Origin: Escherichia phage HY02
Sequence record: KM092515
Direction: 5' to 3' (one strand)
Length of the DNA stretch: 64,000 bases
The translations under genes and the position numbers were made by a program. Within the stretch, counting starts at the first letter, position 1. Every line of letters begins with the position of its first letter. Below, piece by piece: positions 6,554 through 49,952 of this stretch. Below the pieces are notes generated by a model. It was not told where the DNA came from. It made no database searches and was given only the letters and a program-made list of their open reading frames with translations.

Positions 6554-6561
6554 AGATTTAA

Positions 6562-6637
6562 AGGGGATTAGTTTACAAGGTTAAAACCTCGGTCTTTGAA
6601 ATCGAAGAAGTTGGTTCAATTCCAACATCCCCCGCCA
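6562..6637 (+). tRNA. tRNA-Gln (anticodon TTG)
   Basis: Acceptor AGGGGAT/ATCCCCC (A1-C72 mismatch), anticodon stem TCGGT/ATCGA with loop CTTTGAA, T-arm GTTGG-TTCAATT-CCAAC, encoded CCA. Confidence 0.7.
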
Positions 6638-6639
6638 AT

Positions 6640-6718
6640 GCTCCATTACTCCAATTGGCAGAGAGGCCAGACTTAAAATCTGTGTTATGTATCGGTTCGA
6701 ATCCGATATGGAGTACCA
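6640..6718 (+). tRNA. tRNA with anticodon TAA (Leu-type anticodon, short variable arm; isotype uncertain)
   Basis: Acceptor GCTCCAT/ATGGAGT, anticodon loop CTTAAAA with a 4-bp stem, T-arm ATCGG-TTCGAAT-CCGAT, encoded CCA; 79 nt. Confidence 0.55.
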
Positions 6719-6723
6719 AATTT

Positions 6724-6799
6724 AGCGGTATAGCATAACTGGCAATGCAGCAGTCTCTGAAGCTGTCTTATTAAGGTTCAAATCCTTATGCCGCTGCCA
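6724..6799 (+). tRNA. tRNA-Gln (anticodon CTG)
   Basis: Acceptor AGCGGTA/TGCCGCT, anticodon stem GCAGT/GCTGT with loop CTCTGAA, T-arm TAAGG-TTCAAAT-CCTTA, encoded CCA. Confidence 0.7.
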
Positions 6800-6833
6800 C
6801 TTCTAAGGATTCTTACGAGAGTCCTTAGAAGTG
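6800..6833 (+). repeat. second copy of the GGATTCTTACGAGAGTCC hairpin motif flanked by CTTCTAAGG/CCTTAGAAG
   Basis: Direct comparison with 3696-3730; sits between tRNA-Gln and tRNA-His. Confidence 0.5.
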
Positions 6834-6906
6834 GCCTTATCATAAATGGTAATGACCCATGCTGTGAACATGGTCTATACGGGTTCAAATCCCGTAGGTC
6901 ACCCCA
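6831..6906 (+). tRNA. tRNA-His (anticodon GTG)
   Basis: Acceptor GTGGCCT/AGGTCAC, D-arm TCAT-AAATGGTA-ATGA, anticodon stem CCATG/CATGG with loop CTGTGAA, discriminator C73, encoded CCA. Confidence 0.75.
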
Positions 6907-6911
6907 ATTTA

Positions 6912-6988
6912 TAGTCCAAGTAGCTTATATGGTTAAAGCGCGTGTCTGAAAAACATGAGAAGAGGGTTCAAATCCCACTGGACTACCA
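6912..6988 (+). tRNA. tRNA-Phe (anticodon GAA)
   Basis: Acceptor TAGTCCA/TGGACTA, anticodon stem CGTGT/ACATG with loop CTGAAAA, T-loop GGTTCAAATCC; CCA only partly encoded. Confidence 0.7.
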
Positions 6989-7004
6989 ATTTCAAAGGTG
7001 CTTA

Positions 7005-7739
7005 ATGAAAGAGATGACAGAACAAGGTAAGGAGATTTTTAATCTCTTAAAAACTGGTAAAGGGTTTTCTAACCCCCTTATTACTGGTGCAGCAGTTCTC
7101 GGTGGAACCGTAGCTGCCTCTACATCACTTGTAAGCTCTATTAGCTCTGTATCAGACCCTACAGTAAAGGATAAGCTTGTTGCTGCTGGACTTACAACAG
7201 TTCTGCTTAACAGCTTTACCACGAGTCTGACAAGCACTACATCAACTACCAAAACACTAACAGATTACGGTCAAAAGTCCATTGATGAGTTTTCATCACG
7301 TATGCAGGTAGCAAAAGGTTACTCTAATGTTATGGGTGCAGCAGGTGAACAAGTTGGCTGTACACCATTTAGTGGTATTATGGGTGTTGCTACAGAGTAT
7401 GGTCAAAAAGCTATTGATACGATTAACAGTGCACTAGATAGTGTTAATGGTGTGTTAAGTGACTTACAAGATGCTATTGACAAAGGTCTTGATACTATTT
7501 CTGATTTAGCTGAGCAAGCTGTTAGTAAGATTAATGAAGGTATTTCAAAAATTACAGCTTATGCAGATGAAGTTGTGCAGATGATTGAAGAAGAAGCTGC
7601 TCTTATTGCAGAGTACCTTAAAACGAATATCAATGGGTTCTTAGCAGGTATCTTACCAGACTGGTTTGATGATGCTTGTAAAACTGGTGTGATTGACACT
7701 ATTGCAACACCAGAAATGAAGAACGCATTACAGAAATAA
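7005..7739 (+). CDS. hypothetical protein with Ser/Thr-rich segment (start moved downstream of tRNA-Phe)
   Basis: ORF 6942..7739 overlaps tRNA-Phe; the in-frame ATG at 7005 has an AAAGGTG RBS right after the tRNA 3' end. Confidence 0.55.
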   Translation: MKEMTEQGKEIFNLLKTGKGFSNPLITGAAVLGGTVAASTSLVSSISSVSDPTVKDKLVAAGLTTVLLNSFTTSLTSTTSTTKTLTDYGQKSIDEFSSRMQVAKGYSNVMGAAGEQVGCTPFSGIMGVATEYGQKAIDTINSALDSVNGVLSDLQDAIDKGLDTISDLAEQAVSKINEGISKITAYADEVVQMIEEEAALIAEYLKTNINGFLAGILPDWFDDACKTGVIDTIATPEMKNALQK

Positions 7740-7740
7740 T

Positions 7741-7833
7741 GGAAGATTAACCCTAAAAGGTAAGGGAGCAGTTTGCTAAACTGCCAGTAGCTGAGAAATC
7801 GGTGTACCAGTTCAAGTCTGGTATCTTCCTCCA
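7741..7833 (+). tRNA. tRNA-Ser (anticodon GCT), type II
   Basis: 93 nt; perfect acceptor GGAAGAT/ATCTTCC, anticodon stem GCAGT/ACTGC with loop TTGCTAA, long variable arm, T-arm ACCAG-TTCAAGT-CTGGT, encoded CCA. Confidence 0.8.
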
Positions 7834-7837
7834 ATTT

Positions 7838-7913
7838 GAATCCGTGACAGAAATGGCTATGTGCCTGTCTGCAAAACAGGTTTATAAGGGTTCGAGTCCC
7901 TTCGGATTCTCCA
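7838..7913 (+). tRNA. tRNA-Cys (anticodon GCA)
   Basis: Perfect acceptor GAATCCG/CGGATTC, anticodon stem CCTGT/ACAGG with loop CTGCAAA, T-loop GGTTCGAGTCC, encoded CCA. Confidence 0.8.
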
Positions 7914-14054: not shown

Positions 14055-15161
14055 ATGTTGACTAATTCTGAAAAAAGCAGATTTTTCCTTGCTGACCTGA
14101 CTGGTGAAGTCCAGTCTATCCCAAATACTTATGGGTATATTTCCAACTTAGGTCTGTTCCGTTCAGCACCAATCACCCAAACTACTTTCCTGATGGACTT
14201 AACTGATTGGGATGTTAGCTTGCTTGATGCGGTAGACCGTGATAGCCGTAAAGCAGAGACTAGCGCACCTGAACGTGTTCGTCAAATCAGCTTCCCAATG
14301 ATGTACTTCAAAGAAGTTGAAAGCATTACTCCTGATGAGATTCAGGGTGTACGTCAGCCAGGCACTGCAAATGAACTGACTACTGAAGCTGTAGTACGTG
14401 CTAAGAAGCTGATGAAGATTCGTACCAAGTTCGATATTACTCGTGAGTTCCTGTTTATGCAAGCTCTGAAGGGTAAAGTTGTTGATGCTCGTGGTACTCT
14501 GTATGCTGACCTGTACAAGCAGTTCGACGTTGAGAAGAAGACTATTTACTTCGACCTTGACAATCCTAATGCTGACATTGACGCTGCTATTGAAGAACTG
14601 CGTATGCACATGGAAGACGAAGCTAAGACTGGCACTGTAATCAACGGTGAAGAAATTCACGTAGTTGTTGACCGCTTATTCTTCAGCAAACTGGTTAAAC
14701 ATCCTAAGATTCGTGATGCTTATCTTGCACAGCAGACTCCGCTGGCTTGGCAACAGATTACTGGTTCTCTGAGAACTGGTGGCACTGACGGCGTTCAGGC
14801 TCATATGAACACCTTCTACTACGGTGGTGTTAAGTTTGTCCAGTACAACGGTAAGTTCAAAGACAAGCGTGGTAAGGTTCACACTCTGGTGAGCATTGAT
14901 AATGTAGCAGCAACTGTTGGTGTTGGTCATGCCTTCCCTAACGTATCTATGCTGGGTGAAGCTAACAACATCTTCGAAGTGGCATATGGTCCATGTCCTA
15001 AGATGGGTTATGCAAATACACTTGGTCAGGAACTGTACGTATTCGAATACGAAAAAGACCGTGACGAAGGTATTGACTTCGAAGCTCACTCTTACATGCT
15101 GCCATACTGCACACGTCCTCAGTTGCTGGTAGACGTTCGTTCTGACGCTAAATCAAACTAA
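14055..15161 (+). CDS. major capsid protein, lambda gpE-like
   Basis: 368 aa, highly expressed-looking codon usage; position after protease and decoration gene; family recalled from memory. Confidence 0.75.
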   Translation: MLTNSEKSRFFLADLTGEVQSIPNTYGYISNLGLFRSAPITQTTFLMDLTDWDVSLLDAVDRDSRKAETSAPERVRQISFPMMYFKEVESITPDEIQGVRQPGTANELTTEAVVRAKKLMKIRTKFDITREFLFMQALKGKVVDARGTLYADLYKQFDVEKKTIYFDLDNPNADIDAAIEELRMHMEDEAKTGTVINGEEIHVVVDRLFFSKLVKHPKIRDAYLAQQTPLAWQQITGSLRTGGTDGVQAHMNTFYYGGVKFVQYNGKFKDKRGKVHTLVSIDNVAATVGVGHAFPNVSMLGEANNIFEVAYGPCPKMGYANTLGQELYVFEYEKDRDEGIDFEAHSYMLPYCTRPQLLVDVRSDAKSN

Positions 15162-15632: not shown

Positions 15633-16114
15633 TGGTTAAAAGGGTTATTCACCCCGCTAGAGCAAAATTAGTCGGGGCTATGAAGAACTTGCAAACGGCT
15701 AATGCTCAAGTTGGGTATTTTCAAGAACAAGGTCAACATAGCTCTGGTTTTTCTTATCCTGCTTTAATGTATTTACAAGAAGTTATTGGGGTTCCTTCAG
15801 CTTCTGGTAAAGTATATCGTAGGTTGTTTGAAATCACTATGATGCTAAACAAACAGACCTTGTTAGAGCAGACTAAGAAGAATCTATATAAGCAACTTAG
15901 CAGTCTCGACGTAGACCCTTCAAATACCTTAGAAGCATTTGCAAAGAATGCTCAAAAGGCAATTAAAAGAGGTTTTGGTAATTCTGCTATCCTCCCTCCT
16001 AACGCACCTTCCACAGTCAAGAAAAAAGGCTTTAACGCACCTCTTGTTGAGACAGGTGACTTAAGGGATAACCTTGCTTATAAAATTTCTACTAAGAAGG
16101 GTATTAAAAAATGA
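15632..16114 (+). CDS. hypothetical protein (possible head-tail adaptor)
   Basis: ORF track; start overlaps the upstream stop. Confidence 0.45.
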   Translation: MVKRVIHPARAKLVGAMKNLQTANAQVGYFQEQGQHSSGFSYPALMYLQEVIGVPSASGKVYRRLFEITMMLNKQTLLEQTKKNLYKQLSSLDVDPSNTLEAFAKNAQKAIKRGFGNSAILPPNAPSTVKKKGFNAPLVETGDLRDNLAYKISTKKGIKK

Positions 16115-16512
16115 GGCTCTTAAACAGACACAGCTTTGTAGTAAAGCGTAAAGTCTCTGAAGACGGTTATTATAATGATGATGGTGATTGGGTAGCTTCA
16201 CAAGATATTGTTGAGGTTAACTGTAAAGGCAATATCCAACCATATATCAAAGGTTCTGTAAAGAACGGTACGCAGATTGCTTTACCGGAAGGTATTAGGC
16301 TGACCGATACAAGAATCCTGTATACTACATATAAACTTAGAACTTCAGATGATGTAGAGTGGAATGAGTCTGATATTGTTATGATTGATGGTCATGAGTA
16401 TGAAGTATTTATGACTATGGATTGGTCACAGCAATTAGCTCATACATCCCATTATGAATATATCATTATTAGAAGGGATAAAATGAATGCAGTTAGAAAC
16501 AGCAGAACTTGA
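16111..16512 (+). CDS. hypothetical protein (possible neck/head-closure protein)
   Basis: ORF track; overlapping start/stop. Confidence 0.45.
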   Translation: MRLLNRHSFVVKRKVSEDGYYNDDGDWVASQDIVEVNCKGNIQPYIKGSVKNGTQIALPEGIRLTDTRILYTTYKLRTSDDVEWNESDIVMIDGHEYEVFMTMDWSQQLAHTSHYEYIIIRRDKMNAVRNSRT

Positions 16513-37240: not shown

Positions 37241-38341
37241 TTATTCGTAATCTCGAATAACTAACCCAACAGGGAACTGTAAAGAACCCTTACGAGTCAT
37301 CTTCTGGAACTGAACCGTTAAAGGCTTCCCGATAAACTCTTCAGGATGCTCAGCAAGATACTGTTTCTTCTCGTGTGTAGTTTTCCATGAGACATCTACA
37401 AAGACGTTAGGAAGAGTCTCTACAACGAACTTGCCATGACCACGTTTATCGGTCTTTACACCAGTCACTTTAAACTCTTCAGTGTGCATCTTCTTGTGCT
37501 TAATCAAGAAGTATGAACGGTGACAACACTCATAGAAGGAGTCTTCAGAGATTGAACGGTACATTGCACCTTCAAACTTAGCTTCAACCCACTTATCATG
37601 AGCTTCATCGAATTCTTCCCAAGAATTTACACGACGAGACTTAACAGGAACAACTTTACAGCCGTCTCTAAAGTCATTCAATGGTGAAGTCTCAATAATA
37701 TCTCTACGCTCAGGCCACGTCTTAGTGCTGTCACAGATATCGTACCAGTAGAACTGGAGTAGATGTCGGTCTGGATTGTCAGCATTCTTAATCATAGACA
37801 CAATATCTTCTAAGTCCCAACCATGAGCATAAATCTCACCATCAAAGTCTTCGACTTGTGGATGTAATTTAAGCAACAAAAGCAAATCTGGGATTAGTTC
37901 TGCTGGGACGTTGTAAACAGTATTCTCACGAGAATAAGCCGTGAAACTAACTGAATCAGCGTCTCTTGAAATTCTACAACGAACTCCATCAAGTTTTGGT
38001 TGAGCATCAGCAGGGAACTTCAGATACTTTGCATGACTAACCTTTGCAGCATCATGAGCAAGCTGTACACCTACCTTCTCAGTATTCTGTGCAGACTCTT
38101 TTGTGTAAGCATAACCTTTGCGGTCAACTTGCTTTTTATACTTTGCAGCAACTTCAAAGAGAGCTTGCTGTTCAGCGTTACGCTCATTCTTTTTACCGAT
38201 GTTCTTAGGCTCTGCTGTATACTCTTCAAACATCATCTTGCCATTTTCTTTGCCATACGTGGTAACAACTTTGTCACCTACAGCAACACATGACCAGACG
38301 TTAAAAGAGCCATCTTTATTTTGTTTGTACAGTGTTGTCAT
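37241..38341 (-). CDS. ATP-dependent DNA ligase
   Basis: Adenylation motif I KLDGVR (KxDG) in PKLDGVRCRI; 366 aa. Confidence 0.75.
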   Translation of the reverse strand: MTTLYKQNKDGSFNVWSCVAVGDKVVTTYGKENGKMMFEEYTAEPKNIGKKNERNAEQQALFEVAAKYKKQVDRKGYAYTKESAQNTEKVGVQLAHDAAKVSHAKYLKFPADAQPKLDGVRCRISRDADSVSFTAYSRENTVYNVPAELIPDLLLLLKLHPQVEDFDGEIYAHGWDLEDIVSMIKNADNPDRHLLQFYWYDICDSTKTWPERRDIIETSPLNDFRDGCKVVPVKSRRVNSWEEFDEAHDKWVEAKFEGAMYRSISEDSFYECCHRSYFLIKHKKMHTEEFKVTGVKTDKRGHGKFVVETLPNVFVDVSWKTTHEKKQYLAEHPEEFIGKPLTVQFQKMTRKGSLQFPVGLVIRDYE

Positions 38342-38772: not shown

Positions 38773-38823
38773 ATAACCTCCTATATAAGATATTGTATAA
38801 GGTACTCTTCCCTGAGCACCTTG

Positions 38824-39357
38824 TCAAGATAGTTTTGCAAACTCTCCGTGGAGTTTTATAGCAGCTTCACAGTAAGCTTTGTGGGCTTCTTCAGGTGTGT
38901 CATGATAACCTAAAAACATCTTCTTACCTCTATAACTTATCTGTGCGACCCACTTACCAGACTTCTTCTTAAGACTTACACCCTTGTACCCAGATTTATT
39001 GGTGACTAGCTTACCTTTATTCCAAGCACTTTGAAAGTCATCTGCTTCCCTTAAGTTTACAATCCTGTTGTCAAGTGAGTCTCCGTTGATGTGGTCAATG
39101 ATACCTTTTGGCATCTTGCCATACACGTAAAGCCATGCGAGTCTGTGTGCTTTATGTGCTTTCTTGTCAAAATAGATACTAATCTGTTTATGACCACTTG
39201 AATCAGTCTGGATATTACCTGCCACCTTTCCTGCATAATTACTGTTAAAAACACTAACAGCTCTTGATTTACCTTCTCTACGAAGCCAAGTAAAGACCCC
39301 TGTTTCGGGGTCATAGTGTAGCAGCTCCTTTAAACGTTTTTGTAAAATAAAATCCAT
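38824..39357 (-). CDS. HNH homing endonuclease with AP2 DNA-binding domain
   Basis: HNH core (HRLAWLYVYGKMPKGIIDHINGDSLDNRIVNLR) plus AP2-like segment (SGYKGVSLKKKSGKWVAQISYRGKKMFLGYHDTPEEAHKAY); directly downstream of the DNA polymerase gene; paralog at 48940-49455. Confidence 0.8.
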   Translation of the reverse strand: MDFILQKRLKELLHYDPETGVFTWLRREGKSRAVSVFNSNYAGKVAGNIQTDSSGHKQISIYFDKKAHKAHRLAWLYVYGKMPKGIIDHINGDSLDNRIVNLREADDFQSAWNKGKLVTNKSGYKGVSLKKKSGKWVAQISYRGKKMFLGYHDTPEEAHKAYCEAAIKLHGEFAKLS

Positions 39358-39360
39358 TAA

Positions 39361-42060
39361 TCAATGTACCTCATACCAGCTCTTACCAACCTTTGCTGTA
39401 CCAGTTACAAGTGTTTCTTTCCTCAAACCTAAGTTTTTTGAAGCTTGCCCATACATCCAGTCAGCAATTGCTTTCATATCATGTGTCATACCCTCTGGGC
39501 ATTCCCAACTATTTTCGTCGTGATATGCCAGAAGTAACCTTGCTCCGATAGCTGGTTTTCGAGCATTCAGTTTTGTCAGGCCATCTTCACAGGCTTTTCT
39601 TGCTGCTAGGTTGATGGCTTCATTCTGAATCTGTGCTTCCGAACTCATCAGGAGGTAGTTCAGTAGTTTATGTGGAGATTTGCACCATATCCATGCTCCA
39701 GCGACCCTGATATAACCACCTTTAGCAATTGAAGAGTTCTTCCCAAAAACCTCTTCCAGAGCCTTTTTAGACGCCTTAAAATCAGCTTCTAAGCTATCAA
39801 GTAACTTCTTAATCTTTGGCAGACGCATATAGTAAGTTTGTTTCGTCAATGCACCTTCTTCCGTAGATGATGCCTTGATAGTTTTTGCAAACTTCTCATC
39901 TCCGGCTCCAAATAACAGGGCGTAGATGCCATTTTTGCTCTTCTTACGACCTTTTGTAATCTCGTGAAGAAGTTCCTCATCCTGTGTCTCCCTGCAACGA
40001 ACAATATCCTCTTCTTTGTTAAGACCAAAGTAAATACTGTTCAGTGTATGCGCATCAGTCCCCGTGTAGACTTCATAGAGGTCATTTTCAGCATCATAGC
40101 GCAGATACTTGTCAGTTTCTGGGTTAAGATACTTGTCAAGATGCTTACAGTAGTATCTACCATCATCTTGCTTAGTGAACTCTACTGACTCTTTACCTTC
40201 AGTTACTGCTTTAGTGAAGTCTTTATCACCCATAAAGTTACACAGTAAAACAAGCTGTGCAGAGTTCTGGTCAACTGAAACGATATTAGTACCTTCCTCA
40301 CAAATCCAAACTTCCCTCATAGGTGCTCCATAGACAGCAGCACCAGACGGTACGTTTACAATACCATATTGTGTCATACGTCCAGTTGAAGTACCAAACA
40401 CCATTGCACCAGCACTAAGGCGACCATCAGGACGAATCTGGTTCAACCAACCTTTTTCATCATCTTTTGAGTTCTCAATAGTTCTGCGTCGGTGCATCAA
40501 AGTATAGTACTTAGCAATCTTCTGTCCAAGCTCACCTTCAATCGTATCATAAGATGATTCAGTAAGTTTTGGTGAAGTCCTAATCAGACAAGGTTCAAGT
40601 AAGTCTGTGTACTTCTTAACAGACCAGTTATGCTCTATGTACTGTACACCTTCATGCTCAACATAACTCAAACCACACCGTTCCACCATCTCATCCCACT
40701 TAGGATGTTTTGTAATCATCTTTTTATTGTCTTTGAAACGACAAACTTTGACAGGGCGACCATCTGAGTCTTTCTTGTAGTTCCAGTCATCTGGAATCCA
40801 ACCAACTGATTTCAAGTAGTCTTTAACAACTGCTACCTGAGTCATACGAGAAACTTCAAACTCGATTGGTGTATATGGTGCATCAATCAAACCTGTGTAG
40901 CGACTTGACTCAAGCTCAAAGTGGTTAACAACATGGCTGTTATAGTACTTCACAGTTTTAACTGTTTTTACTGGCTTCCAGTCTTTGCATTTCTTACCAA
41001 TCTTTGCGTTCAACTCATTGCAAATTGCACGAGCATCCTTCATTGCTACAAAGCCTTCCTTGTACTCTTCACCAGTTACAGAGTTGGTTGGTGTATAGCA
41101 ATTCCGCTTTTCAATGTTAAAAATCTTTGTAGTTGGCTTACCAAATGGCTTGATTTCATATGTCTGCATCTCACCATTACGTACCTGCTGACGATACTTT
41201 GTCTTAGGATACTTGGTAATTCTCTTCAGTCCATCTGCATGACCAAATGCTTCAACATACTCATTCCAAGCTTTTGCAAACTCTTCTCCAGTGACTTTAC
41301 CTTTAGTCTTAATAGTTGGAGGGAGATGTGGTTCCACTTCTGAAGCAAGCTCATTAGTCAACTTGTCAAGTTCCTTTACATGGAACTCCATAAGCTCTTT
41401 ATCAGCCTTCCAACCATTGATAGCTTGTTGACTCATCCAGAAAGATGTTTCTTTAGCTCGCATGTAGGTTTCATAAGTATCTATGCCACACTTCTTTAGC
41501 TTCAGATATTCATTATCCAATGCACGTTTAGTTTTGGCGTTAATACGGATATCTTCCACAACACGAGTGAAGATTTCTGCATTCCACACACCCCAATGTT
41601 CAATCTCTGGTTTACGAACACCAACACGAGCACCCCATGCTGCCAAGCCATGAGCACCTTTATAGCCTTTTGGAGTTGGTCTATCCATCCATTGAACACG
41701 AGACTGAATAAGAGAATCCTGAAAGAAATTACTCCACGGCTTACACTTTGGATTATCAAAGTTCCACAAATCAGGTGCAATGTGATTGAAAACCCACCAG
41801 TCATAACCGAGACCATTATGGATGCAAAGACGTTTTGCCTTTAACGCAAATTCAACACCTTCACGTAAGCCGCCCTTAATGTACTTAGTGTACTTGTGAC
41901 CGAGGATAGGCTCATCTGTAAAGACCCATACAGGTGGCTCTTCATCGTCAGATTTATAGTCTGCGAAAGCCATTACGTGCACTTTAGTGAACTCAAGGAG
42001 TAAACCATCAGTTTCTGTATCACCAACTAAATGTAAGTTTTTAAAATCTACGTTTTCCAT
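39361..42060 (-). CDS. DNA polymerase, family A, with 3'-5' exonuclease domain
   Basis: Exo I-like DTETDG; motif A-like VDQNSAQLV, motif B-like KNGIYALLFGAG, motif C-like YHDE; start moved to the second ATG, which has a GAGGGA RBS. Confidence 0.85.
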   Translation of the reverse strand: MENVDFKNLHLVGDTETDGLLLEFTKVHVMAFADYKSDDEEPPVWVFTDEPILGHKYTKYIKGGLREGVEFALKAKRLCIHNGLGYDWWVFNHIAPDLWNFDNPKCKPWSNFFQDSLIQSRVQWMDRPTPKGYKGAHGLAAWGARVGVRKPEIEHWGVWNAEIFTRVVEDIRINAKTKRALDNEYLKLKKCGIDTYETYMRAKETSFWMSQQAINGWKADKELMEFHVKELDKLTNELASEVEPHLPPTIKTKGKVTGEEFAKAWNEYVEAFGHADGLKRITKYPKTKYRQQVRNGEMQTYEIKPFGKPTTKIFNIEKRNCYTPTNSVTGEEYKEGFVAMKDARAICNELNAKIGKKCKDWKPVKTVKTVKYYNSHVVNHFELESSRYTGLIDAPYTPIEFEVSRMTQVAVVKDYLKSVGWIPDDWNYKKDSDGRPVKVCRFKDNKKMITKHPKWDEMVERCGLSYVEHEGVQYIEHNWSVKKYTDLLEPCLIRTSPKLTESSYDTIEGELGQKIAKYYTLMHRRRTIENSKDDEKGWLNQIRPDGRLSAGAMVFGTSTGRMTQYGIVNVPSGAAVYGAPMREVWICEEGTNIVSVDQNSAQLVLLCNFMGDKDFTKAVTEGKESVEFTKQDDGRYYCKHLDKYLNPETDKYLRYDAENDLYEVYTGTDAHTLNSIYFGLNKEEDIVRCRETQDEELLHEITKGRKKSKNGIYALLFGAGDEKFAKTIKASSTEEGALTKQTYYMRLPKIKKLLDSLEADFKASKKALEEVFGKNSSIAKGGYIRVAGAWIWCKSPHKLLNYLLMSSEAQIQNEAINLAARKACEDGLTKLNARKPAIGARLLLAYHDENSWECPEGMTHDMKAIADWMYGQASKNLGLRKETLVTGTAKVGKSWYEVH

Positions 42061-42119
42061 TTGTACTCCCTCTAATTCATTAACCTCATACATTACTGCA
42101 AAAAATTATAAAAAGCAAG

Positions 42120-42148
42120 TTGACAATGCGCTTGACAAGGTGTTAATC
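42120..42148 (+). promoter_or_regulatory. sigma70-like promoter region with tandem TTGACA boxes
   Basis: AAAAGCAAGTTGACAATGCGCTTGACAAGGTGTTAATCT in the divergent region between the polymerase gene and the plus-strand block; the -10 is ambiguous. Confidence 0.4.
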
Positions 42149-42316
42149 TTTGCGAAGTGGGTTTTTACTTAAAAGGTTACTTAACAGTTTAACTATACAG
42201 ATACTTTAAAAGTCTTAAAAGATTATTTAATAGCTTTTAAAAAGCTTTAAAGTATAACGTATAGAATACGTTAAGATAAAAGATTAAAACTTAATAGTTA
42301 CTTAAAAGAGGCTTAC

Positions 42317-42739
42317 ATGCAGAAAATGTTTGTTCACCCAGACATAGCTGACTTTGTTAGAGCTTTGCAAAAGTTGGAAGAACTTGACATTGCTGCTCAA
42401 CGGGAATATGCTCACCATCACAGGAGAATGGTTGATATACAACATGAAATAGAGTTGTCTGAAAACTATGAAGATGACTTAAAATGCTCTGTATTTGAGC
42501 ATATGAAAGATGTTGCTACAGCGAGACGTAAAGCTAAAGACACAGTTGCTTTACTAGATTCTCTTAAAAAGAGGTTGCAAAGTGGTACAGACCTGTGTAA
42601 TCTAGCGTCACTGATTAACGATGTTGAAACTTCTTGGGATAGGCACTATTATCCACGTTCTGAAAAGACACTTGACTTTTCTTCATCCGAAAACTTAAAA
42701 TGTTCTAGAAAGAAACTTAACCAACTGAGAGAGAAATAA
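42317..42739 (+). CDS. hypothetical protein
   Basis: 140-aa ORF with AAAGAGG RBS. Confidence 0.55.
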   Translation: MQKMFVHPDIADFVRALQKLEELDIAAQREYAHHHRRMVDIQHEIELSENYEDDLKCSVFEHMKDVATARRKAKDTVALLDSLKKRLQSGTDLCNLASLINDVETSWDRHYYPRSEKTLDFSSSENLKCSRKKLNQLREK

Positions 42740-42740
42740 T

Positions 42741-43553
42741 ATGAATATCGATGTAGAAAAGATGCTTGAAGAGAAAGGTATTGACGAAGCATTTTTAATC
42801 AATGCCGTAGAAAGCATGGCTATGATTCTTCGTGGTAACAACTACACAGAACAGTTTATGCCTGCAAGCTATAACTTGCCTGAAGACAAGTCTGATAACG
42901 GTGCTTTTGCAGAACAGGTTAACATGATGCTTTGCGACAAAACACTTGCTTTAGCATCTATCGTTGTAGGTGTTGATGCCCTTGCAGAGTTCATTTTTTA
43001 TGAGATGCAGAAAAATGATTATATTGCCATGACCACTGAAGAAAAAGACTTGCTACTACTCGCAGGTAACGATGAACTAATTGACCTGTTAATTTCATCA
43101 ACTAGTGCTGTTATGGCTGCTCTTGAGAAGCGCATGGAAGAAAAACTTTCACGATATGAAAAACTTGATTGGGGTGTAGAAGAATTAAACCCACGAATCA
43201 AAGAAATTATCCAGCAAACTAAAGATTCTTTAGGAGAAGCTGTGAAAGATGATTCTGTAGCTGATGTAGAACCACTACAGGTGAAGGTTGCTCTGATGAT
43301 TCCAGCTATTTCTACAATGATGAATATCGTTGCACTAATCCAACTTTCTCAGATGTTGGGAGTAACCATTGAGTTCGTTGAGGAAATGACTGGCGGTGTG
43401 AGTATGCAAGCAATCAATGATGTTTTGGTGAACATTGGTGCTTCAATCATTGAAGAGAAGCTTCGCATTAACTTTGGTGATGATTTTGTGAAGCAAATCT
43501 CAGCTATGGCTGAAAAAGAACACTCACAGATTAATACTGACCAACTGCACTAA
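42741..43553 (+). CDS. hypothetical protein
   Basis: 270-aa ORF with RBS. Confidence 0.55.
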   Translation: MNIDVEKMLEEKGIDEAFLINAVESMAMILRGNNYTEQFMPASYNLPEDKSDNGAFAEQVNMMLCDKTLALASIVVGVDALAEFIFYEMQKNDYIAMTTEEKDLLLLAGNDELIDLLISSTSAVMAALEKRMEEKLSRYEKLDWGVEELNPRIKEIIQQTKDSLGEAVKDDSVADVEPLQVKVALMIPAISTMMNIVALIQLSQMLGVTIEFVEEMTGGVSMQAINDVLVNIGASIIEEKLRINFGDDFVKQISAMAEKEHSQINTDQLH

Positions 43554-43570
43554 GTTTTTATAAACCTTAC

Positions 43571-43596
43571 AAGCCTCCTTAGTTGGGGGCTTTTTA
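43571..43596 (+). terminator. rho-independent terminator
   Basis: AAGCCTCC...GGGGGCTT hairpin followed by TTT. Confidence 0.45.
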
Positions 43597-43614
43597 GTAA
43601 TTAAGGAAGATAGA

Positions 43615-44358
43615 ATGAGTAATATTATTGCATTTACTGGAAAAGCACGTTCTGGAAAGGACACCTCATGTTCTATTGTCAAAAATATCCTAGAAGATGA
43701 GTATGGCTACAATGTTGCAGTAATGGCCTATGCAGACAACCTTAAACTTTCTGCATCAAAGATATTTGACTTGACATGGAATGACCTGTACGGCGAAACT
43801 AAAGAGACTCCACAGGTTTTTGATTTATCATACTCTGAACTTATGTTAAAAGTTACGGAAGCTATGGAGTTCACCTTCAGAGATGAACGTTATCATATGG
43901 ACTTTAAGCTTATGTCAGAGTTAACCGGACGATTAATCATGGAACTTAAGAAGGTCGCTAAACCGACTCTATTGACACGTCTTGGGTTTAGTAAAAAGTA
44001 TAAATTCTCATCAAGGCAAATTCAACAGATTTGGGGTACTGAAGTTATCCGTAAAGTTATGGGTGACAAGTTCTGGTCTAAAGACCTTGAAAAAAGAATG
44101 GTAAACTTCTTTGACGTTTGCTCACTTAGGAATCAAGAAGGTGTTGTTCTAATCAGTGACTTAAGGTTTGACTCTGAAGCTGAGTGGCTGAGTAGATTTG
44201 CACACCAAACTATTGAAGTAAAAAGAGACAATGTGGACAAGGTTTCATCACATGTTTCAGAAAATGGAATTTCTACCAAATATGCGCGTGACATTATCCA
44301 TAATAATGGTACTCTTGAAGACCTTGAAAGCAAGCTAAGAGCTATCCTGAAAATTTAA
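43615..44358 (+). CDS. deoxynucleoside monophosphate kinase-like P-loop protein
   Basis: N-terminal P-loop IIAFTGKARSGKDT resembling phage dNMP kinases (T4 gp1-like); 247 aa. Confidence 0.55.
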   Translation: MSNIIAFTGKARSGKDTSCSIVKNILEDEYGYNVAVMAYADNLKLSASKIFDLTWNDLYGETKETPQVFDLSYSELMLKVTEAMEFTFRDERYHMDFKLMSELTGRLIMELKKVAKPTLLTRLGFSKKYKFSSRQIQQIWGTEVIRKVMGDKFWSKDLEKRMVNFFDVCSLRNQEGVVLISDLRFDSEAEWLSRFAHQTIEVKRDNVDKVSSHVSENGISTKYARDIIHNNGTLEDLESKLRAILKI

Positions 44359-44366
44359 AAGAGAGA

Positions 44367-44567
44367 ATGAAGATGAGAGTAAAAGATAATTTTAAAGTTA
44401 TTGACCATCGTTTAGTGGAACTCTCATCTCTTTCCAATGAGGTAATGATTGAACGTCTTAAGAGAGTTGAATCACGAAGGAAAGAGATTGCAGATGAAAT
44501 TCATGAATTGGACAAGATTGAAAATGGATTGAAGGCAGAACTACAACGAAGAGGTGCTAATGTCTAA
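44367..44567 (+). CDS. hypothetical small coiled-coil protein
   Basis: 66-aa ORF. Confidence 0.45.
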   Translation: MKMRVKDNFKVIDHRLVELSSLSNEVMIERLKRVESRRKEIADEIHELDKIENGLKAELQRRGANV

Positions 44568-46545
44568 AGGTCGTAAATTGAAAGAGGCTGGTCAGTTTAT
44601 TGGTCATTGTGCATGTCCACGTTGTGGTTCATCAGATGCTGGTTCAATCTATCATCATGACGATGATTCTTATTCGATGACTTGCTTTAGCTGTAACAAA
44701 GGTTTCCCAGAGTGGGATTTTGATAAAGGACAAATCGTGAGCACTTATTCTACTGGTTCAGACAATAAAAACCGTACTTTCCGTGGAATGGATTTAGACG
44801 ATGTAAAAGAAAACCTAGAAGCAATGGACTTGAAAGACAGGAAGATTCCTGCAAAAGTCCTTGAACGCTTAGGTATCAAGGTTGACATTGACAGTGATGG
44901 TGAAATTGACGCACATTTCTATCCAACTTACAAACGTAATGAAGATGGTAAGCTAGAACATGTTGGTTACCGTGTTCGTCACCGTTACCCAGAAGACCAT
45001 CCAAAAGAGCACCTACGTGGTAAGCTAAAAGACTTTTCTGGTGGTGTTGGAGACATTAAAGGTGAACTGGCAATGTTCGGTTCATGGATTGCTCCAGAAG
45101 GTGGTAACCGTCTATTCATCTGGGAAGGTGAGATGGAATGTGCGACAGCAATCTATATGACTTCTCTTGCGATTAAGGACAAGTCTCGTCGTAAGAATTA
45201 CTGTCACGTATCTGTTCCATCGGGTGCAAACATCAAGTCTATCAAGGATAACTATCAGTACATTACATCATTTGATGAGATTTACTTGTGCTTTGATAAC
45301 GATGAAGCAGGTGCTAAAGCCACTAAAGAGGCTGCTGGTATCCTACCTATTGAGAAGGTTCGTTTATTCCAGTATCCAGAAGGTGTAAAAGACCTTAACG
45401 AGTGGTGGACAAAGTTCTATAAAGAGAAAGATACAGTTCTGGAAGGATTTAAGCAGCGTATCTACAATGCACCTCGTTACTGTCCTGCTGGTATCAAGAA
45501 CTTCGCAGATGGTTTTGAGGCAATGAAGAATCGTGGTCAGATTCCATTGATTCCTTTCCCAGAATCTTTCGGAGATTTGAACAGGCTGACTTATGGTGGT
45601 TACGGTTTAGGTGAGATTACAACTCTGGCAGCACCATCTTCAGTGGGTAAATCTGCATACACTCGTGAAATGATTTACACTGCTTGGAAAGATACCGATT
45701 ACAATATTGGTGTAATTCCTGTAGAGGATACCTATGAAGAGTTGATGGAGATGCTCTGTGCAATCCACCTGAGCAAGCAGATTTCTGAGATTCCTTATGA
45801 CGAACGTGATTGGGATGAATTGAAGGAAGCACACGCAGAACTGTCTAAAGGTCGTCGTATCCACATCGTAGACCATCAAGGGGCAATTGACCAAGATAAC
45901 TTGCTGGAATTTGTTGACTATCTTGTTAACAGCTTGGACTGTAAGATTATTATTCTTGACCCTATTACGTTGGCTCTGTCACGTTCAGATACTGATGAAG
46001 AGGAAGTTTTATCTGAGCTATTGCGTCGTTGTAAACGCTACCAGTATGCACAGGTAAACGTCTGTCACGTTCGTAAAAGTGCAGGTGGTCAGAAGGCTAA
46101 CTCCGAAGGTGGAGATATCTCTGAAGAGGATATTAAAGGCTCTGGTGCGTATTTCCAGATTTCTATGAACAACATTCTGTTAATGCGTAACAAGGTTGAC
46201 CCAGACCCTGTTAAGAAAAACTTGACAAAAATCAAGTTAACTAAATGCCGTCGTCACGGTAAGTCAACGGGTATTGCTGGTCATACTTGGTACAATCCAG
46301 ATACAGGACGTCTCATTAAAGCATCTGGTTGTGGAGTTGACATTGATGGCGCAGCAGAAAATATTCGCCAACAGTTTGGTATTGGTGAAGCTGAAGACCA
46401 TTACGATGACTCTTTGCCACATTATGAGGATGAAGTGTTTGACCGTGAGACTGGTGAAGTCTATACTGAAGAACAGCGTCAAAGCTCAACGATTCCACCT
46501 GTATTAAGTGAGGATGCAGATGACTGCCCATTCGAAACTGAGTGA
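44560..46545 (+). CDS. DNA primase-helicase (T7 gp4-like)
   Basis: N-terminal zinc-binding cysteines (CACPRCGSSD...CFSCNKG), central TOPRIM-like acidic region, C-terminal DnaB-type Walker A APSSVGKSAY; start moved to the ATG with a GAAGAGG RBS. Confidence 0.85.
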   Translation: MSKGRKLKEAGQFIGHCACPRCGSSDAGSIYHHDDDSYSMTCFSCNKGFPEWDFDKGQIVSTYSTGSDNKNRTFRGMDLDDVKENLEAMDLKDRKIPAKVLERLGIKVDIDSDGEIDAHFYPTYKRNEDGKLEHVGYRVRHRYPEDHPKEHLRGKLKDFSGGVGDIKGELAMFGSWIAPEGGNRLFIWEGEMECATAIYMTSLAIKDKSRRKNYCHVSVPSGANIKSIKDNYQYITSFDEIYLCFDNDEAGAKATKEAAGILPIEKVRLFQYPEGVKDLNEWWTKFYKEKDTVLEGFKQRIYNAPRYCPAGIKNFADGFEAMKNRGQIPLIPFPESFGDLNRLTYGGYGLGEITTLAAPSSVGKSAYTREMIYTAWKDTDYNIGVIPVEDTYEELMEMLCAIHLSKQISEIPYDERDWDELKEAHAELSKGRRIHIVDHQGAIDQDNLLEFVDYLVNSLDCKIIILDPITLALSRSDTDEEEVLSELLRRCKRYQYAQVNVCHVRKSAGGQKANSEGGDISEEDIKGSGAYFQISMNNILLMRNKVDPDPVKKNLTKIKLTKCRRHGKSTGIAGHTWYNPDTGRLIKASGCGVDIDGAAENIRQQFGIGEAEDHYDDSLPHYEDEVFDRETGEVYTEEQRQSSTIPPVLSEDADDCPFETE

Positions 46546-46801
46546 TAGTTATAAAAGAGAGGGGTTCACACCCTTCTTTGAAGAAAAAAGTTTAAATAAA
46601 TTTCAGGAAGAGTGTTTGACAAAGATTGATAGGTTCTATAGAATGCTCCTCATGAAATGCGATGGGGAAGTTGAGGTAAAAGAAGATTTCCACCAGAGTA
46701 TGATTACAGTCATCATTGCGCTGCCTCAGCATGATATTAGTTGGCTGTTTATAATTAAAGAAAATGTGTTTGAATATCAAGTATATCGGAGAATATCATG
46801 A
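46508..46801 (+). CDS. hypothetical protein
   Basis: 97-aa ORF overlapping the primase-helicase 3' end. Confidence 0.4.
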   Translation: MRMQMTAHSKLSDSYKREGFTPFFEEKSLNKFQEECLTKIDRFYRMLLMKCDGEVEVKEDFHQSMITVIIALPQHDISWLFIIKENVFEYQVYRRIS

Positions 46802-46947
46802 AACACTCTAAAGCATTTGAAAAAGTTTTTGGGGATTCTTTAAAAGCCACTGCTGGAAAACCAGCAAAATACTATGAAGAAAAACGTGTAAGAACTGGAA
46901 AAACTGCACGTAAAGCAGCTTCTAAAGATAAGCACAACTTCCAGTAA
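46798..46947 (+). CDS. small basic protein (49 aa), not in the supplied ORF track
   Basis: ATG at 46798 overlaps the upstream stop (ATGA) and has a GGAGAA RBS; open to TAA at 46945-46947; Lys/Arg-rich. Confidence 0.4.
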   Translation: MKHSKAFEKVFGDSLKATAGKPAKYYEEKRVRTGKTARKAASKDKHNFQ

Positions 46948-46954
46948 TTAGTAT

Positions 46955-46983
46955 TTGACAATAGAGTATCAACAAACTAGAAT
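46955..46983 (+). promoter_or_regulatory. sigma70-like promoter (TTGACA, 17 bp, TAGAAT)
   Basis: TTGACA at 46955-46960 and TAGAAT at 46978-46983, upstream of the SSB-like gene. Confidence 0.45.
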
Positions 46984-47019
46984 TGGTACTCTTCATAAAT
47001 TGAGATAGAGGTTTAAATA

Positions 47020-47877
47020 ATGTCTAAAGTTGTTAAAATGAAAGCTCCGGTAGAGAAGTACAACGGTACTGAACGTCAAACTCTGCGTTACCTGCTGAAA
47101 GATGTCTGGTTTTATTACCTGAACACTTCACCACGTCCGGGAAAAGGTAAGTCTATTGATAAGAAATTCCCAGGCAAAGACTGTAACTACAGCGTATCAA
47201 TTCTGGCAGAAGACGGTAACAAACTGTTTAAAGAGTTTACTAAGTCTAAGAAGAACCCAGAAGGTTGGGATAAAGTTACTACTGAAGCAGTTGATGCAGA
47301 TGACTTCGAAGAGAAGTTTGGTTGTAAACCACCTTTTGAAGCAGACACTTACTACATCTTGAAAGTAAGTCGTGCAGCAGCTTATAAAGATGGTGCTGTA
47401 TGGACAGCTAAACAGTCATTCCCTGTTATGCTTATTGAAGAAGTAAATGGTAAGCGTGTAGCTGTTAAGCAGCCGATGAAGAAAATCAAAGCTCAAGCAT
47501 CTGATAAACATGAAGATGATAAGAACTATGATGTAATTCATCCAGATATTGCAGTTGGTAACGGTTCTTTTGGTAGTGTGATTCTTTCTACTCACTTCTA
47601 CACTTTTGAGAACAATGTTCTGACAAAACCTATTCAGGAACAGTTTATCATTGATACTCTTGTACCTTACACTGGTGGTAACGGTGCTAACGGTGAACCT
47701 GAACTGGATGAAGACGAACTGGCTATGCTTGGTCTTGATGGCGTTGAAGATAACGGTGAAATCACTGAAGAAGATGCAACAGACCACAAACCTTCGAATG
47801 ACTCTGACGATGGTGATGACGAAGACTTGCCGGACCCAGATGACGAAGAAGATGAAGACTTCGATACAGAAGATTAA
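47020..47877 (+). CDS. putative single-stranded DNA-binding protein with acidic C-terminal tail
   Basis: 285 aa with AGAGG RBS; extremely acidic C-terminus ending DEDFDTED, as in T7 gp2.5-type SSBs; followed by a terminator. Confidence 0.5.
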   Translation: MSKVVKMKAPVEKYNGTERQTLRYLLKDVWFYYLNTSPRPGKGKSIDKKFPGKDCNYSVSILAEDGNKLFKEFTKSKKNPEGWDKVTTEAVDADDFEEKFGCKPPFEADTYYILKVSRAAAYKDGAVWTAKQSFPVMLIEEVNGKRVAVKQPMKKIKAQASDKHEDDKNYDVIHPDIAVGNGSFGSVILSTHFYTFENNVLTKPIQEQFIIDTLVPYTGGNGANGEPELDEDELAMLGLDGVEDNGEITEEDATDHKPSNDSDDGDDEDLPDPDDEEDEDFDTED

Positions 47878-47895
47878 TCTCTAAAAGTTACTTTA

Positions 47896-47924
47896 AAGCC
47901 CTGTACTTAGTATGGGGCTTTTTC
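47896..47924 (+). terminator. rho-independent terminator
   Basis: AAGCCC...GGGGCTT hairpin followed by TTT. Confidence 0.55.
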
Positions 47925-47939
47925 ATATGGAGAGCCATA

Positions 47940-48986
47940 ATGGAGAAGTACACATTAACAAAGCTTCCCGATTCAGTTACACATGTCTTTATTGACTCTG
48001 ACAGCATTGCCTATAAAGGTGCTTGTGTAGTTGAGAAAGCAAAGTATAAATACGTTAATAAACTCACAGCAGAAGAATCTGAACCATTTGATAATGCGAA
48101 AGATGCTGCAAGATGGTTAGCAGACCAGAGAATCTTTGTGGAAGAGCTTGGCCTGACATTTGATGAAGATGAATGGGAAAGACAAACTTGGAAAGAAGCT
48201 AAGAGTGAAAAAGAAGCTATCATGGCTACTCAACAGGTTCTTCAGGAATGGCTTAAGGTTGTTGGTAAAGAAAGAACTTGGGTGGGTTATTTAACAGAGA
48301 AAGGTGTGCATAAACATAAAGACATTAAAGGTCTTGAGCACCAATATCAAGGTAACCGTAAAGATGCTGTCACACCAACACACTTAGTCGCTTGTCGTGA
48401 ATACCTTTTATCCAGACCAGAGTTCAAGCTCTTAAAGGGAGGCTTCGAAGCCGATTCAATCGTAATTGCTAAAGCTGAAAAGATGGGTAAGAAGGCTGCT
48501 CTTATGAGTATTGACAAAGACCTTCGACAAGCTGAAGGGACTTATTGTATTGATATGACTTATGAAAAATCACCACTAATCTTTATCGCTGATAACAATG
48601 TTGGTGATATCTGGGATTGTCCTATCAAATCAAAACCAAAAGCTGCAAAAACAGTTGGTGTAGGTTTTAAATTCTTGTGTTATCAGGCTGTTGCTGGAGA
48701 TAATGCAGACAACTACTTCGGCCTAAAAGGTGCTGGTAAAGTAGCTGTGATGAATGCTTTAGATGGTAAAGAGACCTACAAAGAGTGTCTTGATGCTATC
48801 TATGAACTGTATGCTAAAAAAGACTCTTATACCTATGTGTCATGGGATGGTCAGACTGTTACAAAGACACCGTTAGAGTTAATGGAACAGCATTTCTTCC
48901 TAGCTTATCAAGAGCGAAATAAATCAGATATTTTTTCATTTGAAAAGTATGGTTGGACTCCGAATGTTAACTCAACAAACTCTTAA
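47940..48986 (+). CDS. putative 5'-3' exonuclease / RNase H (FEN-like)
   Basis: N-terminal acidic cluster VFIDSDSIAYKG and later GGFEADSIVIAK...MSIDKDL resembling PIN/FEN nuclease motifs; 348 aa. Confidence 0.5.
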   Translation: MEKYTLTKLPDSVTHVFIDSDSIAYKGACVVEKAKYKYVNKLTAEESEPFDNAKDAARWLADQRIFVEELGLTFDEDEWERQTWKEAKSEKEAIMATQQVLQEWLKVVGKERTWVGYLTEKGVHKHKDIKGLEHQYQGNRKDAVTPTHLVACREYLLSRPEFKLLKGGFEADSIVIAKAEKMGKKAALMSIDKDLRQAEGTYCIDMTYEKSPLIFIADNNVGDIWDCPIKSKPKAAKTVGVGFKFLCYQAVAGDNADNYFGLKGAGKVAVMNALDGKETYKECLDAIYELYAKKDSYTYVSWDGQTVTKTPLELMEQHFFLAYQERNKSDIFSFEKYGWTPNVNSTNS

Positions 48987-49455
48987 AGAATACCTGCACT
49001 ATGACCCCGAAACAGGGGTCTTTACTTGGATTAAGAAGTCTGCTAGACACACAAAAATTGGCTCTGTTGCAGGTACAAACTTAAGAGGGTACACCAGAAT
49101 TTATTTGTTTGGTAAGGGCTATTATGCACATACCCTAGCTGTTCTGTATATGGATGGATACCTACCTGAGTGTGTTGACCATAAAAATCATGTAACACTA
49201 GACAATCGCTGGGTAAATCTTAGGGCATGTACGTTATCAGAGAACCAATGTAATAGGTTGCTCAATAAGAACAATAAATCAGGTGTTAAGGGTGTGTACT
49301 ACAAAAAACAGTATGGTAAGTGGTCTACACAGATAACTTTTAAGAAGAGGGTCTACTTCTTCGGCAACTATGACACTATTGATGAAGCAGCAGAGGTTGT
49401 AAATAGGGAACGTCAACGTTTACACAAAGAGTTTGCTAATAAAGGTGATGAATGA
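48940..49455 (+). CDS. HNH homing endonuclease with AP2 domain (second copy)
   Basis: Shares the YDPETGVFTW N-terminus and HNH core (HTLAVLYMDGYLPECVDHKNHVTLDNRWVNLR) plus AP2-like segment (SGVKGVYYKKQYGKWSTQITFKKRVYFFGNYDTIDEAAEV) with 38824-39357; start may be the internal Met. Confidence 0.75.
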   Translation: MKSMVGLRMLTQQTLKEYLHYDPETGVFTWIKKSARHTKIGSVAGTNLRGYTRIYLFGKGYYAHTLAVLYMDGYLPECVDHKNHVTLDNRWVNLRACTLSENQCNRLLNKNNKSGVKGVYYKKQYGKWSTQITFKKRVYFFGNYDTIDEAAEVVNRERQRLHKEFANKGDE

Positions 49456-49952
49456 GAAAAATAAAAGGTTTTGGCAATTGCCCTGAATATGGACATTGGG
49501 TTTCACTATGTGGTGAAGTTGACCCAGCAAAGCACTTTGGTTTTGTCTACCTAGTGTACTGCAAAAAGACTGGACAGTACTATTTGGGTAAGAAACAGCT
49601 TAATAGTGTGACTAAAAGAAAAGTTGCTGGGGAGACTCGGAAGAAGGTAGTTACTAAGGAGAGTGATTGGATGACTTACGAAACCTCTTCTGAGTATATT
49701 AAAAAAGATATTGAAAGCTTTGGAAAAGAATTTTTTGACTTTTACATTATCCAAACCTACTACACGAAAGGTGGCCTAGTTTATGGTGAAGCAAACCTCC
49801 AACATAAATTCGATGTAATGACAAAAAGGATTGACTCTAAGCTCAGACTCTTCTACAATGCCAACATTGCAGCAATTAAGTTTATCACTAAAGAAACTTA
49901 TGAAGATGCTGAAAAAAGAATCCATAAGGTAATGAAAGCAAATTGTGCTTGA
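49452..49952 (+). CDS. putative GIY-YIG family endonuclease
   Basis: GFVYLVYCKKTGQYYLGKK matches the GIY...YIG spacing; directly after an HNH endonuclease gene. Confidence 0.5.
   Translation: MRKIKGFGNCPEYGHWVSLCGEVDPAKHFGFVYLVYCKKTGQYYLGKKQLNSVTKRKVAGETRKKVVTKESDWMTYETSSEYIKKDIESFGKEFFDFYIIQTYYTKGGLVYGEANLQHKFDVMTKRIDSKLRLFYNANIAAIKFITKETYEDAEKRIHKVMKANCA

Follow-up and report, generated by a model that had tools for sequence, protein, structure and literature searches.

Two likely free-standing HNH-AP2 homing-endonuclease genes and a probably domesticated SegE-type nuclease gene among the replication genes of Escherichia phage HY02

The replication genes of Escherichia phage HY02, a Felix O1-like myovirus of the genus Felixounavirus (subfamily Ounavirinae), are accompanied by three small open reading frames (ORF) that an original prediction had grouped together as free-standing homing-endonuclease genes: two of the HNH-AP2 type and one of the GIY-YIG type. 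The window analysed here is a stretch of 64,000 nt from sequence record KM092515, and all positions refer to the whole of it (Table 1). Each of the three ORFs exists, at or close to its predicted coordinates. The minus strand carries, in order, the ligase gene, two small genes, the first HNH-AP2 gene (HNH #1) and the DNA polymerase gene, while the plus strand carries primase-helicase, a 285-aa gene, a 5'-3' exonuclease, the second HNH-AP2 gene (HNH #2), the GIY-YIG gene (GIY-like), an 81-aa gene, a MazG-like gene and ribonucleotide reductase. The predicted contacts between genes are borne out: HNH #1 abuts the polymerase gene, beginning 3 nt past its stop codon, and the TGA of HNH #2 overlaps the ATG of GIY-like as ATGA. 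No further paralogs of either type were found in the 64 kb.

Two sets of relatives were compared with the window. About 260 GenBank phage records match the region at 90-96% identity, nearly all of them Felixounavirus phages of Escherichia, Salmonella, Shigella and Citrobacter; gene presence in these was counted at 80% coverage or more, and site occupancy was tested with flank-gene-flank queries. A further 32 IMG/VR loci of ~22 kb each, covering both HNH sites, make up a set of 33 genomes together with the window; labels such as L012 or L039 denote individual loci of this set.

Table 1. Positions of the genes, sites and sequence motifs discussed in the text.
Feature	Position	Strand	Basis or remark
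Conserved intergenic leader TGACAAGG...TATAGGAGG of the downstream 72-aa gene (p72)	38777..38826	-	occupied/empty-site alignment
HNH #1, HNH-AP2 gene, 177 aa	38824..39357	-	Pfam HNH_3 and AP2, phrog_99; window version = 'class A'
Palindrome GACCCC-GAAACA-GGGGTC, then TTTACTT	39295..39312	-	nt 46-63 of HNH #1
DNA polymerase, family A, 910 aa, uninterrupted	39361..42093	-	ORF call
Polymerase 3' haplotype block, last ~1 kb	39361..40350 (bins 39300-40350)	-	binned identity
Intron-insertion site, polymerase motif B	39901..39927	-	window carries silent variant ATCTACGCCCTGTTATTTGGAGCCGGA
5'-3' exonuclease (FEN/RNase H-like)	47940..48986	+	phrog_107, annotation in relatives, boundary alignment
HNH #2, HNH-AP2 gene, 163 aa from ATG 48964	48964..49455	+	Pfam HNH_3, phrog_99
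Palindrome GACCCC-GAAACA-GGGGTC, then TTTACTT	49003..49020	+	nt 40-57 of HNH #2
GIY-like, SegE-type GIY-YIG nuclease-domain protein, 166 aa	49452..49952	+	PF19835, predicted fold
Position of palindrome GTGGGG-AAGTTGA-CCCCAC in GIY-like	49509..49529	+	present in most relatives; broken in window

The predicted motifs match Pfam families, with one shortfall. HNH #1 matches HNH_3 (E 9e-15, 54.5 bits against a cut-off of 24.8) and AP2 (E 2e-12, 47.5 bits against 33.3), its AP2 module also matching solved plant AP2/ERF domains. HNH #2 matches HNH_3 (E 1e-11, 44.5 bits, cut-off 24.8), and its AP2 module reaches 21 bits, under the cut-off of 33.3. The predicted domains nevertheless hold, as HNH_3 plus AP2 in both HNH proteins and as a SegE-type GIY-YIG domain in the third: HNH #2 aligns end to end with HNH #1, AP2 module included, and the module lies C-terminal to the HNH domain in both. 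Both proteins belong over their full length to phrog_99, both ORFs are intact, and the nuclease motif DH-x-N-x4-DNR-x2-NLR is complete in each; NCBIfam gave no match for either of them or for the GIY-like protein. Sequence comparison makes the two HNH proteins paralogs with homologous AP2 modules. The near identity that had been claimed for the YDPETGVFTW N-terminus holds, as 12 consecutive identical residues (LHYDPETGVFTW), and does not extend to the AP2 modules, overall identity being 40%. The predicted start of HNH #2 also needs revision: the ORF spans 48940-49455, but its TTG at 48940 still belongs to the exonuclease gene and precedes the insertion boundary, and the likely start is the ATG at 48964 (MLTQQ...), which gives the protein the same N-terminal length as HNH #1 and a distant homolog. 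The ratio of nonsynonymous to synonymous substitution rates (dN/dS) is 0.18 for HNH #1 and, from two comparisons, 0.03 for HNH #2. Dozens of GenBank felixounaviruses carry genes 95-99% identical to these two under the labels HNH or homing endonuclease.

Both HNH genes are sporadic. The window allele of HNH #1 occurs in 56 of the ~260 GenBank records and that of HNH #2 in 19. At the junction of the exonuclease and GIY-like genes (site 2), 84 records have some HNH allele and about two thirds of relatives are empty, an empty site being recognised by a record span of 1018 bp as against 1503 bp when occupied. The junction of the polymerase gene and p72 (site 1) is more varied, and is empty in SP2 and Ro111lw, for example. 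Among the 32 IMG/VR loci, an HNH-AP2 gene lies just after the polymerase gene in 17, in at least four allele classes, and at site 2 in 12, in at least three classes; in two Erwinia-phage loci it sits on the opposite side of the polymerase gene. At site 1, the allele of phage garuso resembles class A at the two extremities of the gene, 5' and 3', and nowhere else. Several divergent alleles at both sites, together with clean empty ones, agree with the predicted status of these loci as insertion hotspots.

The comparison of synteny with relatives lacking the ORFs, which the original prediction had proposed, defines the insertions to the exact base. Both genes lie between other genes, with neither intron nor intein around them. 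At site 1 a cassette of ~531 bp, lying between the polymerase stop and the conserved p72 leader, stands in place of 4 bp, and the TGA stop of HNH #1 is made of the first three bases of that leader. A possible sigma-70 promoter 3' of HNH #1 (TTGACA...TATACAAT) was dropped because its spacer is 22-24 nt and a promoter scan does not flag it. At site 2 the exonuclease stop overlaps the GIY-like start when the site is empty. The HNH #2 cassette (~485 bp) supplies the final exonuclease codons and equips GIY-like with a new Shine-Dalgarno sequence and ATG. The same junction is occupied in a distant genus: L039 has an HNH-AP2 gene there (15762-16241), its sister L038 has none (at about 15750), and the two differ by 483 bp. 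L039 and window proteins are 61% identical for HNH, as opposed to 48% for the exonuclease and 53% for GIY-like; this HNH gene is closer to that of the window than its flanks are, which indicates lateral spread to the same junction. One site-2 copy, in Si3 (L025, about 14393-14470), has a 1-nt deletion that shifts the frame and is a probable pseudogene; the deletion falls within the stem of a palindrome described below.

Insertion at both sites is accompanied by unusual divergence of the neighbouring coding sequence. Over the final ~1 kb of the polymerase gene, genomes with the same HNH #1 allele (L012, L014) mostly keep 97-100% identity to the window, falling to 86-90% at 39900-40200. Most other felixounaviruses are 66-86% identical in this block, as against 88-99% in the rest of the gene, and L010, L030 and L031 are intermediate. 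Synonymous divergence (dS) in the block is 2.08 versus 0.36 elsewhere in the gene, while dN/dS is equal at about 0.06. A roughly sixfold rise in dS at equal dN/dS argues for an imported haplotype and not for relaxed selection, and on sequence grounds the block is read as a tract of co-conversion tied to the HNH #1 site. At site 2, distinct haplotypes occupy the first ~150 bp of GIY-like and the 3'-terminal 150-600 bp of the exonuclease gene; two exonuclease 3' haplotypes were found, and the flank haplotypes are partly uncoupled from the HNH #2 allele. A like flank pattern, with exchange bounded by nuclease genes, has been described in other phages (PMC10448857). The original prediction had foreseen an effect of these genes on their neighbours through marker exclusion, and diverged, mosaic polymerase and exonuclease ends are what marker exclusion or co-conversion would be expected to leave.

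What might the class A enzyme cut? An Rfam search detected no group I intron in the window. Relatives do carry one (Rfam RF00028, 63 bits), which separates residues 725 and 726 of the polymerase within the motif KNGIYALLFGAG, presumably motif B of family A polymerases; the position corresponds to about 39917/39918 of the window. The intron is present in 97 GenBank records and comes in an ORF-less form of 268-311 nt and a longer form of about 800 nt with an endonuclease VII-like ORF (examples of the intron, all on the minus strand, are L006 3736-4011, L004 2759-3244 and L014 5097-5364). The silent variant found at this site in the window differs by 8 silent changes from the majority sequence, ATCTATGCACTGCTGTTCGGTGCAGGT. 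Carriers of class A, defined as the 38 unique GenBank genomes with the HNH #1 allele at 95% identity or more, fall into two groups, 30 genomes with the ORF-less intron and 8 with the window variant, one of these having a single additional substitution; none of the 38 has either the majority site or the ORF-containing intron. Among the IMG/VR loci, all genomes that have the window variant also have an HNH gene at site 1, and site 1 is empty in four of the five genomes with the ORF-containing intron. Since every class A allele is found with an interrupted or recoded site, the motif-B site is the best candidate target, and this polymerase region, 555 bp upstream of HNH #1, is likely to be what the class A enzyme recognises. 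The class A gene and the intron together resemble collaborative homing or endonuclease turnover as described in PMC3984707 and PMC10448857.

It could be argued that flank divergence reflects ordinary recombination among co-infecting felixounaviruses, with the HNH genes as passive passengers or as decayed remnants that no longer cut. Mosaic identity is indeed found elsewhere in the region, in ligase bins 37650-37950 and at 51400, and the exonuclease 3' haplotypes are linked only in part to the HNH #2 allele. However, the strongest divergence lies directly against the cassettes, where synonymous divergence reaches about six times background, and mere passengers would not account for a polymerase site that is disrupted or recoded in all class A carriers, or for a cassette that reached the same junction in another genus. 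Remnants, in turn, would not be expected to keep intact ORFs with complete motifs under the purifying selection measured above; pseudogenised copies can be recognised, as the frameshift in L025 illustrates, so the intact copies are not simply ones that have yet to decay. Recombination with inert HNH genes is thus an improbable account of the two sites.

Each HNH gene also contains the same palindrome near its 5' end, two copies in the 64 kb where 0.04 would be expected. Its stem is made of very rare codons (CCC 1.4%, GGG 5%, GTC 9.5%) and does not vary across HNH allele classes that are 35-60% identical, among Felixounavirus-group alleles with the motif, while its loop has five variants, some of which alter amino acids. 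A terminator scan rates it as a weak one, and it could be an RNA hairpin, a weak terminator or a binding site for the AP2 domain. The last possibility gives some purchase to the proposal that HNH-AP2 proteins mainly serve the phage, either as AP2 regulators with the palindrome as operator or as weapons against competing phages. The invariance of a rare-codon 18-nt palindrome in all these alleles would fit an operator; AP2 domains of endonucleases of the HNH-AP2 type are reported to bind poly(G)/poly(C) (PMC6781369), and I-TevI provides the precedent of an endonuclease that also represses its own gene (PMC10448857). Yet the palindrome could equally well be a hairpin or weak terminator, and most relatives lack any given HNH allele, many having no HNH gene at one or both sites, so that no essential phage function depends on these genes. 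A regulatory role would also be compatible with homing and is not an exclusive alternative; as the main purpose of the HNH proteins it is very improbable.

A second palindrome, GTGGGG-AAGTTGA-CCCCAC, lies about 60 nt into the GIY-like gene of most relatives (L011 around 14474, for instance), again with rare GGG and CCC codons; in Suspvirus and Mooglevirus it reads GCGGGG...CCCCGC. Silent changes have disrupted both G4/C4 tracts in the window and break the palindrome in all four carriers of the window-type HNH #2. Of the 20 empty-site genomes shown, 18 retain it intact, L036 and the Erwinia-phage locus L032 being the exceptions. Apart from the carriers, it is destroyed only in two genomes, which share the GIY-like 5' flank of the window. 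Assessed as a conserved RNA structure, it shows one compensatory pair, a score that 100 of 500 shuffles also reach and that is thus not significant, and weak folding z-scores. The distribution makes it a candidate recognition site for the window-type HNH #2. A bolder and rather doubtful proposal would join both observations: the C4/G4 palindromes would form a recognition code read by AP2 domains, and GIY-like would be a domesticated endonuclease partner of the exonuclease in all Felix O1-like phages. If true, such a code would give the HNH genes both self-regulation and a choice of target.

The GIY-like gene has a different history from its HNH neighbour. It is present in 259 of the ~260 GenBank records, with weaker matches in Erwinia, Hafnia and Cronobacter phages, and in 33 of 33 loci, across genera, at one syntenic position after the exonuclease gene. 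In distant loci it is 52-62% identical to the window where primase-helicase is 57-70% identical, so its divergence tracks that of the genome. No relative down to 48% exonuclease identity has an exonuclease gene without GIY-like at this position, although the gene is not found beside far more distant exonuclease homologs. Its start overlaps or directly abuts the exonuclease gene in those genomes with an empty site that were examined. It is the most constrained gene of its neighbourhood, with a dN/dS of 0.037 compared with 0.06 for both polymerase and exonuclease, 0.07 for MazG-like, 0.10 for ligase and 0.18 for HNH #1. The original prediction was thus right about two of its three homing genes, which are patchy and have empty sites, and wrong about the third, which proves to be a core gene conserved in nearly all relatives. 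On this comparative evidence GIY-like is a fixed core gene of the Felix O1-like clade and not a sporadic homing gene.

What kind of protein does it encode? The catalytic domain alone covers the 166 aa (PF19835, E 9e-27), and domain searches found no NUMOD, helix-turn-helix (HTH), Zn finger or other DNA-binding module. Across 118 sequences, W16, G30, F31, Y33, Y44, G46, K48, W73, Y76, S79, F97, E113 and N136 are invariant, a set that includes the conserved catalytic Tyr, Tyr, Lys, Glu and Asn (Y33, Y44, K48, E113, N136). Searches of PDB sequences with the protein alone and with a 40-sequence profile gave nothing significant. The predicted fold matches I-TevI; the prediction was made from the 118-sequence alignment, eight close homologs having given an unusable model with a predicted local distance difference test (pLDDT) score of 49. 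A profile search gathered 1,863 clusters of the family, whose lengths seem to form two groups, about 130-200 and 220-390 aa, the long members combining the SegE GIY-YIG domain with NUMOD3 or HTH modules. Short SegE-type genes also occur outside the clade, in T4-like metagenomic contigs (L040, L042, L043) directly after genes for gp46/gp47-like exonucleases (Rad50/Mre11-type); such adjacency was seen in two of three look-ups, a small sample. In EC6 (L015, 14899-15397) the gene is split by a frameshift and is a probable pseudogene. The label 'NAD synthetase', carried by PHROG 447 and by many GenBank records, has no support: neither Pfam nor NCBIfam returned an NAD synthase family.

Family membership does lend weight to the idea that each of the three genes encodes an active, selfish homing endonuclease, the GIY-YIG gene having swept to fixation while still homing into distant phages. 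SegE is a homing-endonuclease family, many of whose members join GIY-YIG to NUMOD3 or HTH; the catalytic residues are intact, and some GenBank records name the gene 'GIY-YIG homing endonuclease'. The distribution described above speaks against it, however: near-universal presence at one position, divergence that follows the genome, no site-recognition module and no empty site down to 48% exonuclease identity. Moreover, a selfish endonuclease that has reached fixation should decay and not become the most constrained gene of its neighbourhood. Continued homing by GIY-like is therefore improbable, and the protein is better seen as a nuclease that was probably domesticated and is kept by selection for a phage function. 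That function is probably to nick or cut DNA in concert with the 5'-3' exonuclease, in host-DNA breakdown, nucleotide salvage or recombination; T7 gp3 and gp6 serve as the analogy for such a pairing of endonuclease and exonuclease.

Together, these results suggest, with a probability of roughly 0.8, that HNH #1 and HNH #2 are free-standing homing-endonuclease genes and that the GIY-YIG ORF is a fixed, SegE-descended nuclease gene under selection. Each HNH cassette would be a self-contained unit of ~0.5 kb placed exactly between two essential replication genes (polymerase and p72, exonuclease and GIY-like), and would bring replacement end codons or start signals, leaving both neighbours intact. 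In a mixed infection, the HNH enzyme would nick or cut a cassette-less genome near the site, the AP2 domain binding DNA and the HNH domain cutting it, and repair would copy the donor cassette and, with it, as much as about 1 kb of the polymerase or exonuclease/GIY-like sequence at its side. The GIY-YIG gene, of homing-endonuclease ancestry through the SegE family, would have been inherited vertically with the exonuclease gene.

Several considerations weigh against this reading or parts of it. Cleavage and homing are, for all three proteins, read from sequence comparison, and the AP2 match of HNH #2 is below threshold. With the motif-B site only 555 bp from HNH #1, linkage is a live alternative and could alone account for the association of this allele with the polymerase site; since the majority polymerase site is also found together with HNH classes B and D, the target assignment can hold for class A at most. 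For GIY-like, the proposed function draws on gene order, on the overlap or adjacency of its start with the exonuclease gene, and on analogies with T4 EndoII and T7, and the frameshift in EC6 could be a sequencing error or a sign that the gene is dispensable. DNA modification is not known from Felix O1-like phages, and a non-specific nuclease would then have no explained way of sparing the phage genome.

Some practical consequences follow for annotation and comparison. 'Homing endonuclease' is the correct annotation for both HNH genes, while the GIY-YIG gene should not be listed among mobile elements; it is a candidate for a selfish nuclease turned to phage function. Three stretches are prone to exchange and should be left out of phylogenetic trees: ~1 kb at the 3' end of the polymerase gene, ~0.6 kb at the 3' end of the exonuclease gene and ~150 bp at the start of GIY-like. 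The genus also provides a natural series usable to test how mobile introns form, its states being no element, a free-standing HNH gene only, an HNH gene with an ORF-less intron, and an intron with its own endonuclease.

Other features of the region were noted in passing. In some relatives, such as BPS17W1, the ligase gene (window 37241-38341) is annotated as two or three pieces and additional small ORFs lie between the ligase and polymerase genes, which suggests more insertion sites that are empty in the window. The divergently transcribed polymerase and primase-helicase blocks are separated, at about 42000-42500, by an AT-rich stretch (GC content 0.31) where the GC skew switches sign; it might serve as a control region or an origin of replication. 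On the plus strand, 23 tRNA genes are clustered at 3089-7910. Near-identical Felixounavirus sequence appears in MG065664, MG065668 and GU169904, named 'Campylobacter phage A126/A132' and 'Staphylococcus phage SA1', which suggests contamination or mislabelling.

How do these genes compare with known systems? According to later papers that cite Magnani et al. 2004, that work dealt with AP2-containing HNH endonucleases in Felix O1 (PMC4237383, PMC5318435) and, more widely, with the HNH-AP2 homing endonucleases of Felix O1, phage RB49, Trichodesmium and Tetrahymena (the same two and PMC6781369). The Felix O1 genome paper lists six free-standing HNH homologs and reports no introns (Whichard et al. 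2010, PMC3185647). HNH homing genes have thus been known in Felix O1 since 2004-2010, and the finding is largely known and ordinary for this phage group: the HNH genes of the window share with those of Felix O1 and RB49 the HNH_3 plus AP2 architecture and the free-standing state, they come from the same phage group as Felix O1, and nothing essential differs. The original prediction was in this respect essentially right as an observation. What is added is a site-by-site map of occupancy, the exact boundaries, the divergence of the flanks and the intragenic palindrome, details that were not found described in the literature searched and that may be useful to specialists; a literature search for 'Felix O1' together with 'GIY-YIG' also returned no paper.

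The class A locus is like a collaborative homing pair in that relatives with the endonuclease-bearing intron mostly lack the free-standing gene, and unlike one in that the window has no intron, its insertion site being recoded by 8 silent changes instead. The GIY-like protein departs from the T4 Seg endonucleases of its own family (SegE, PF19835) and from I-TevI: it has neither linker nor DNA-binding domain, it is universal at one locus, and it is under very strong purifying selection. With T4 endonuclease II (EndoII, DenA) it shares a fold and no detectable sequence relationship, but, like that enzyme, it is a single-domain GIY-YIG protein encoded by a conserved phage gene.

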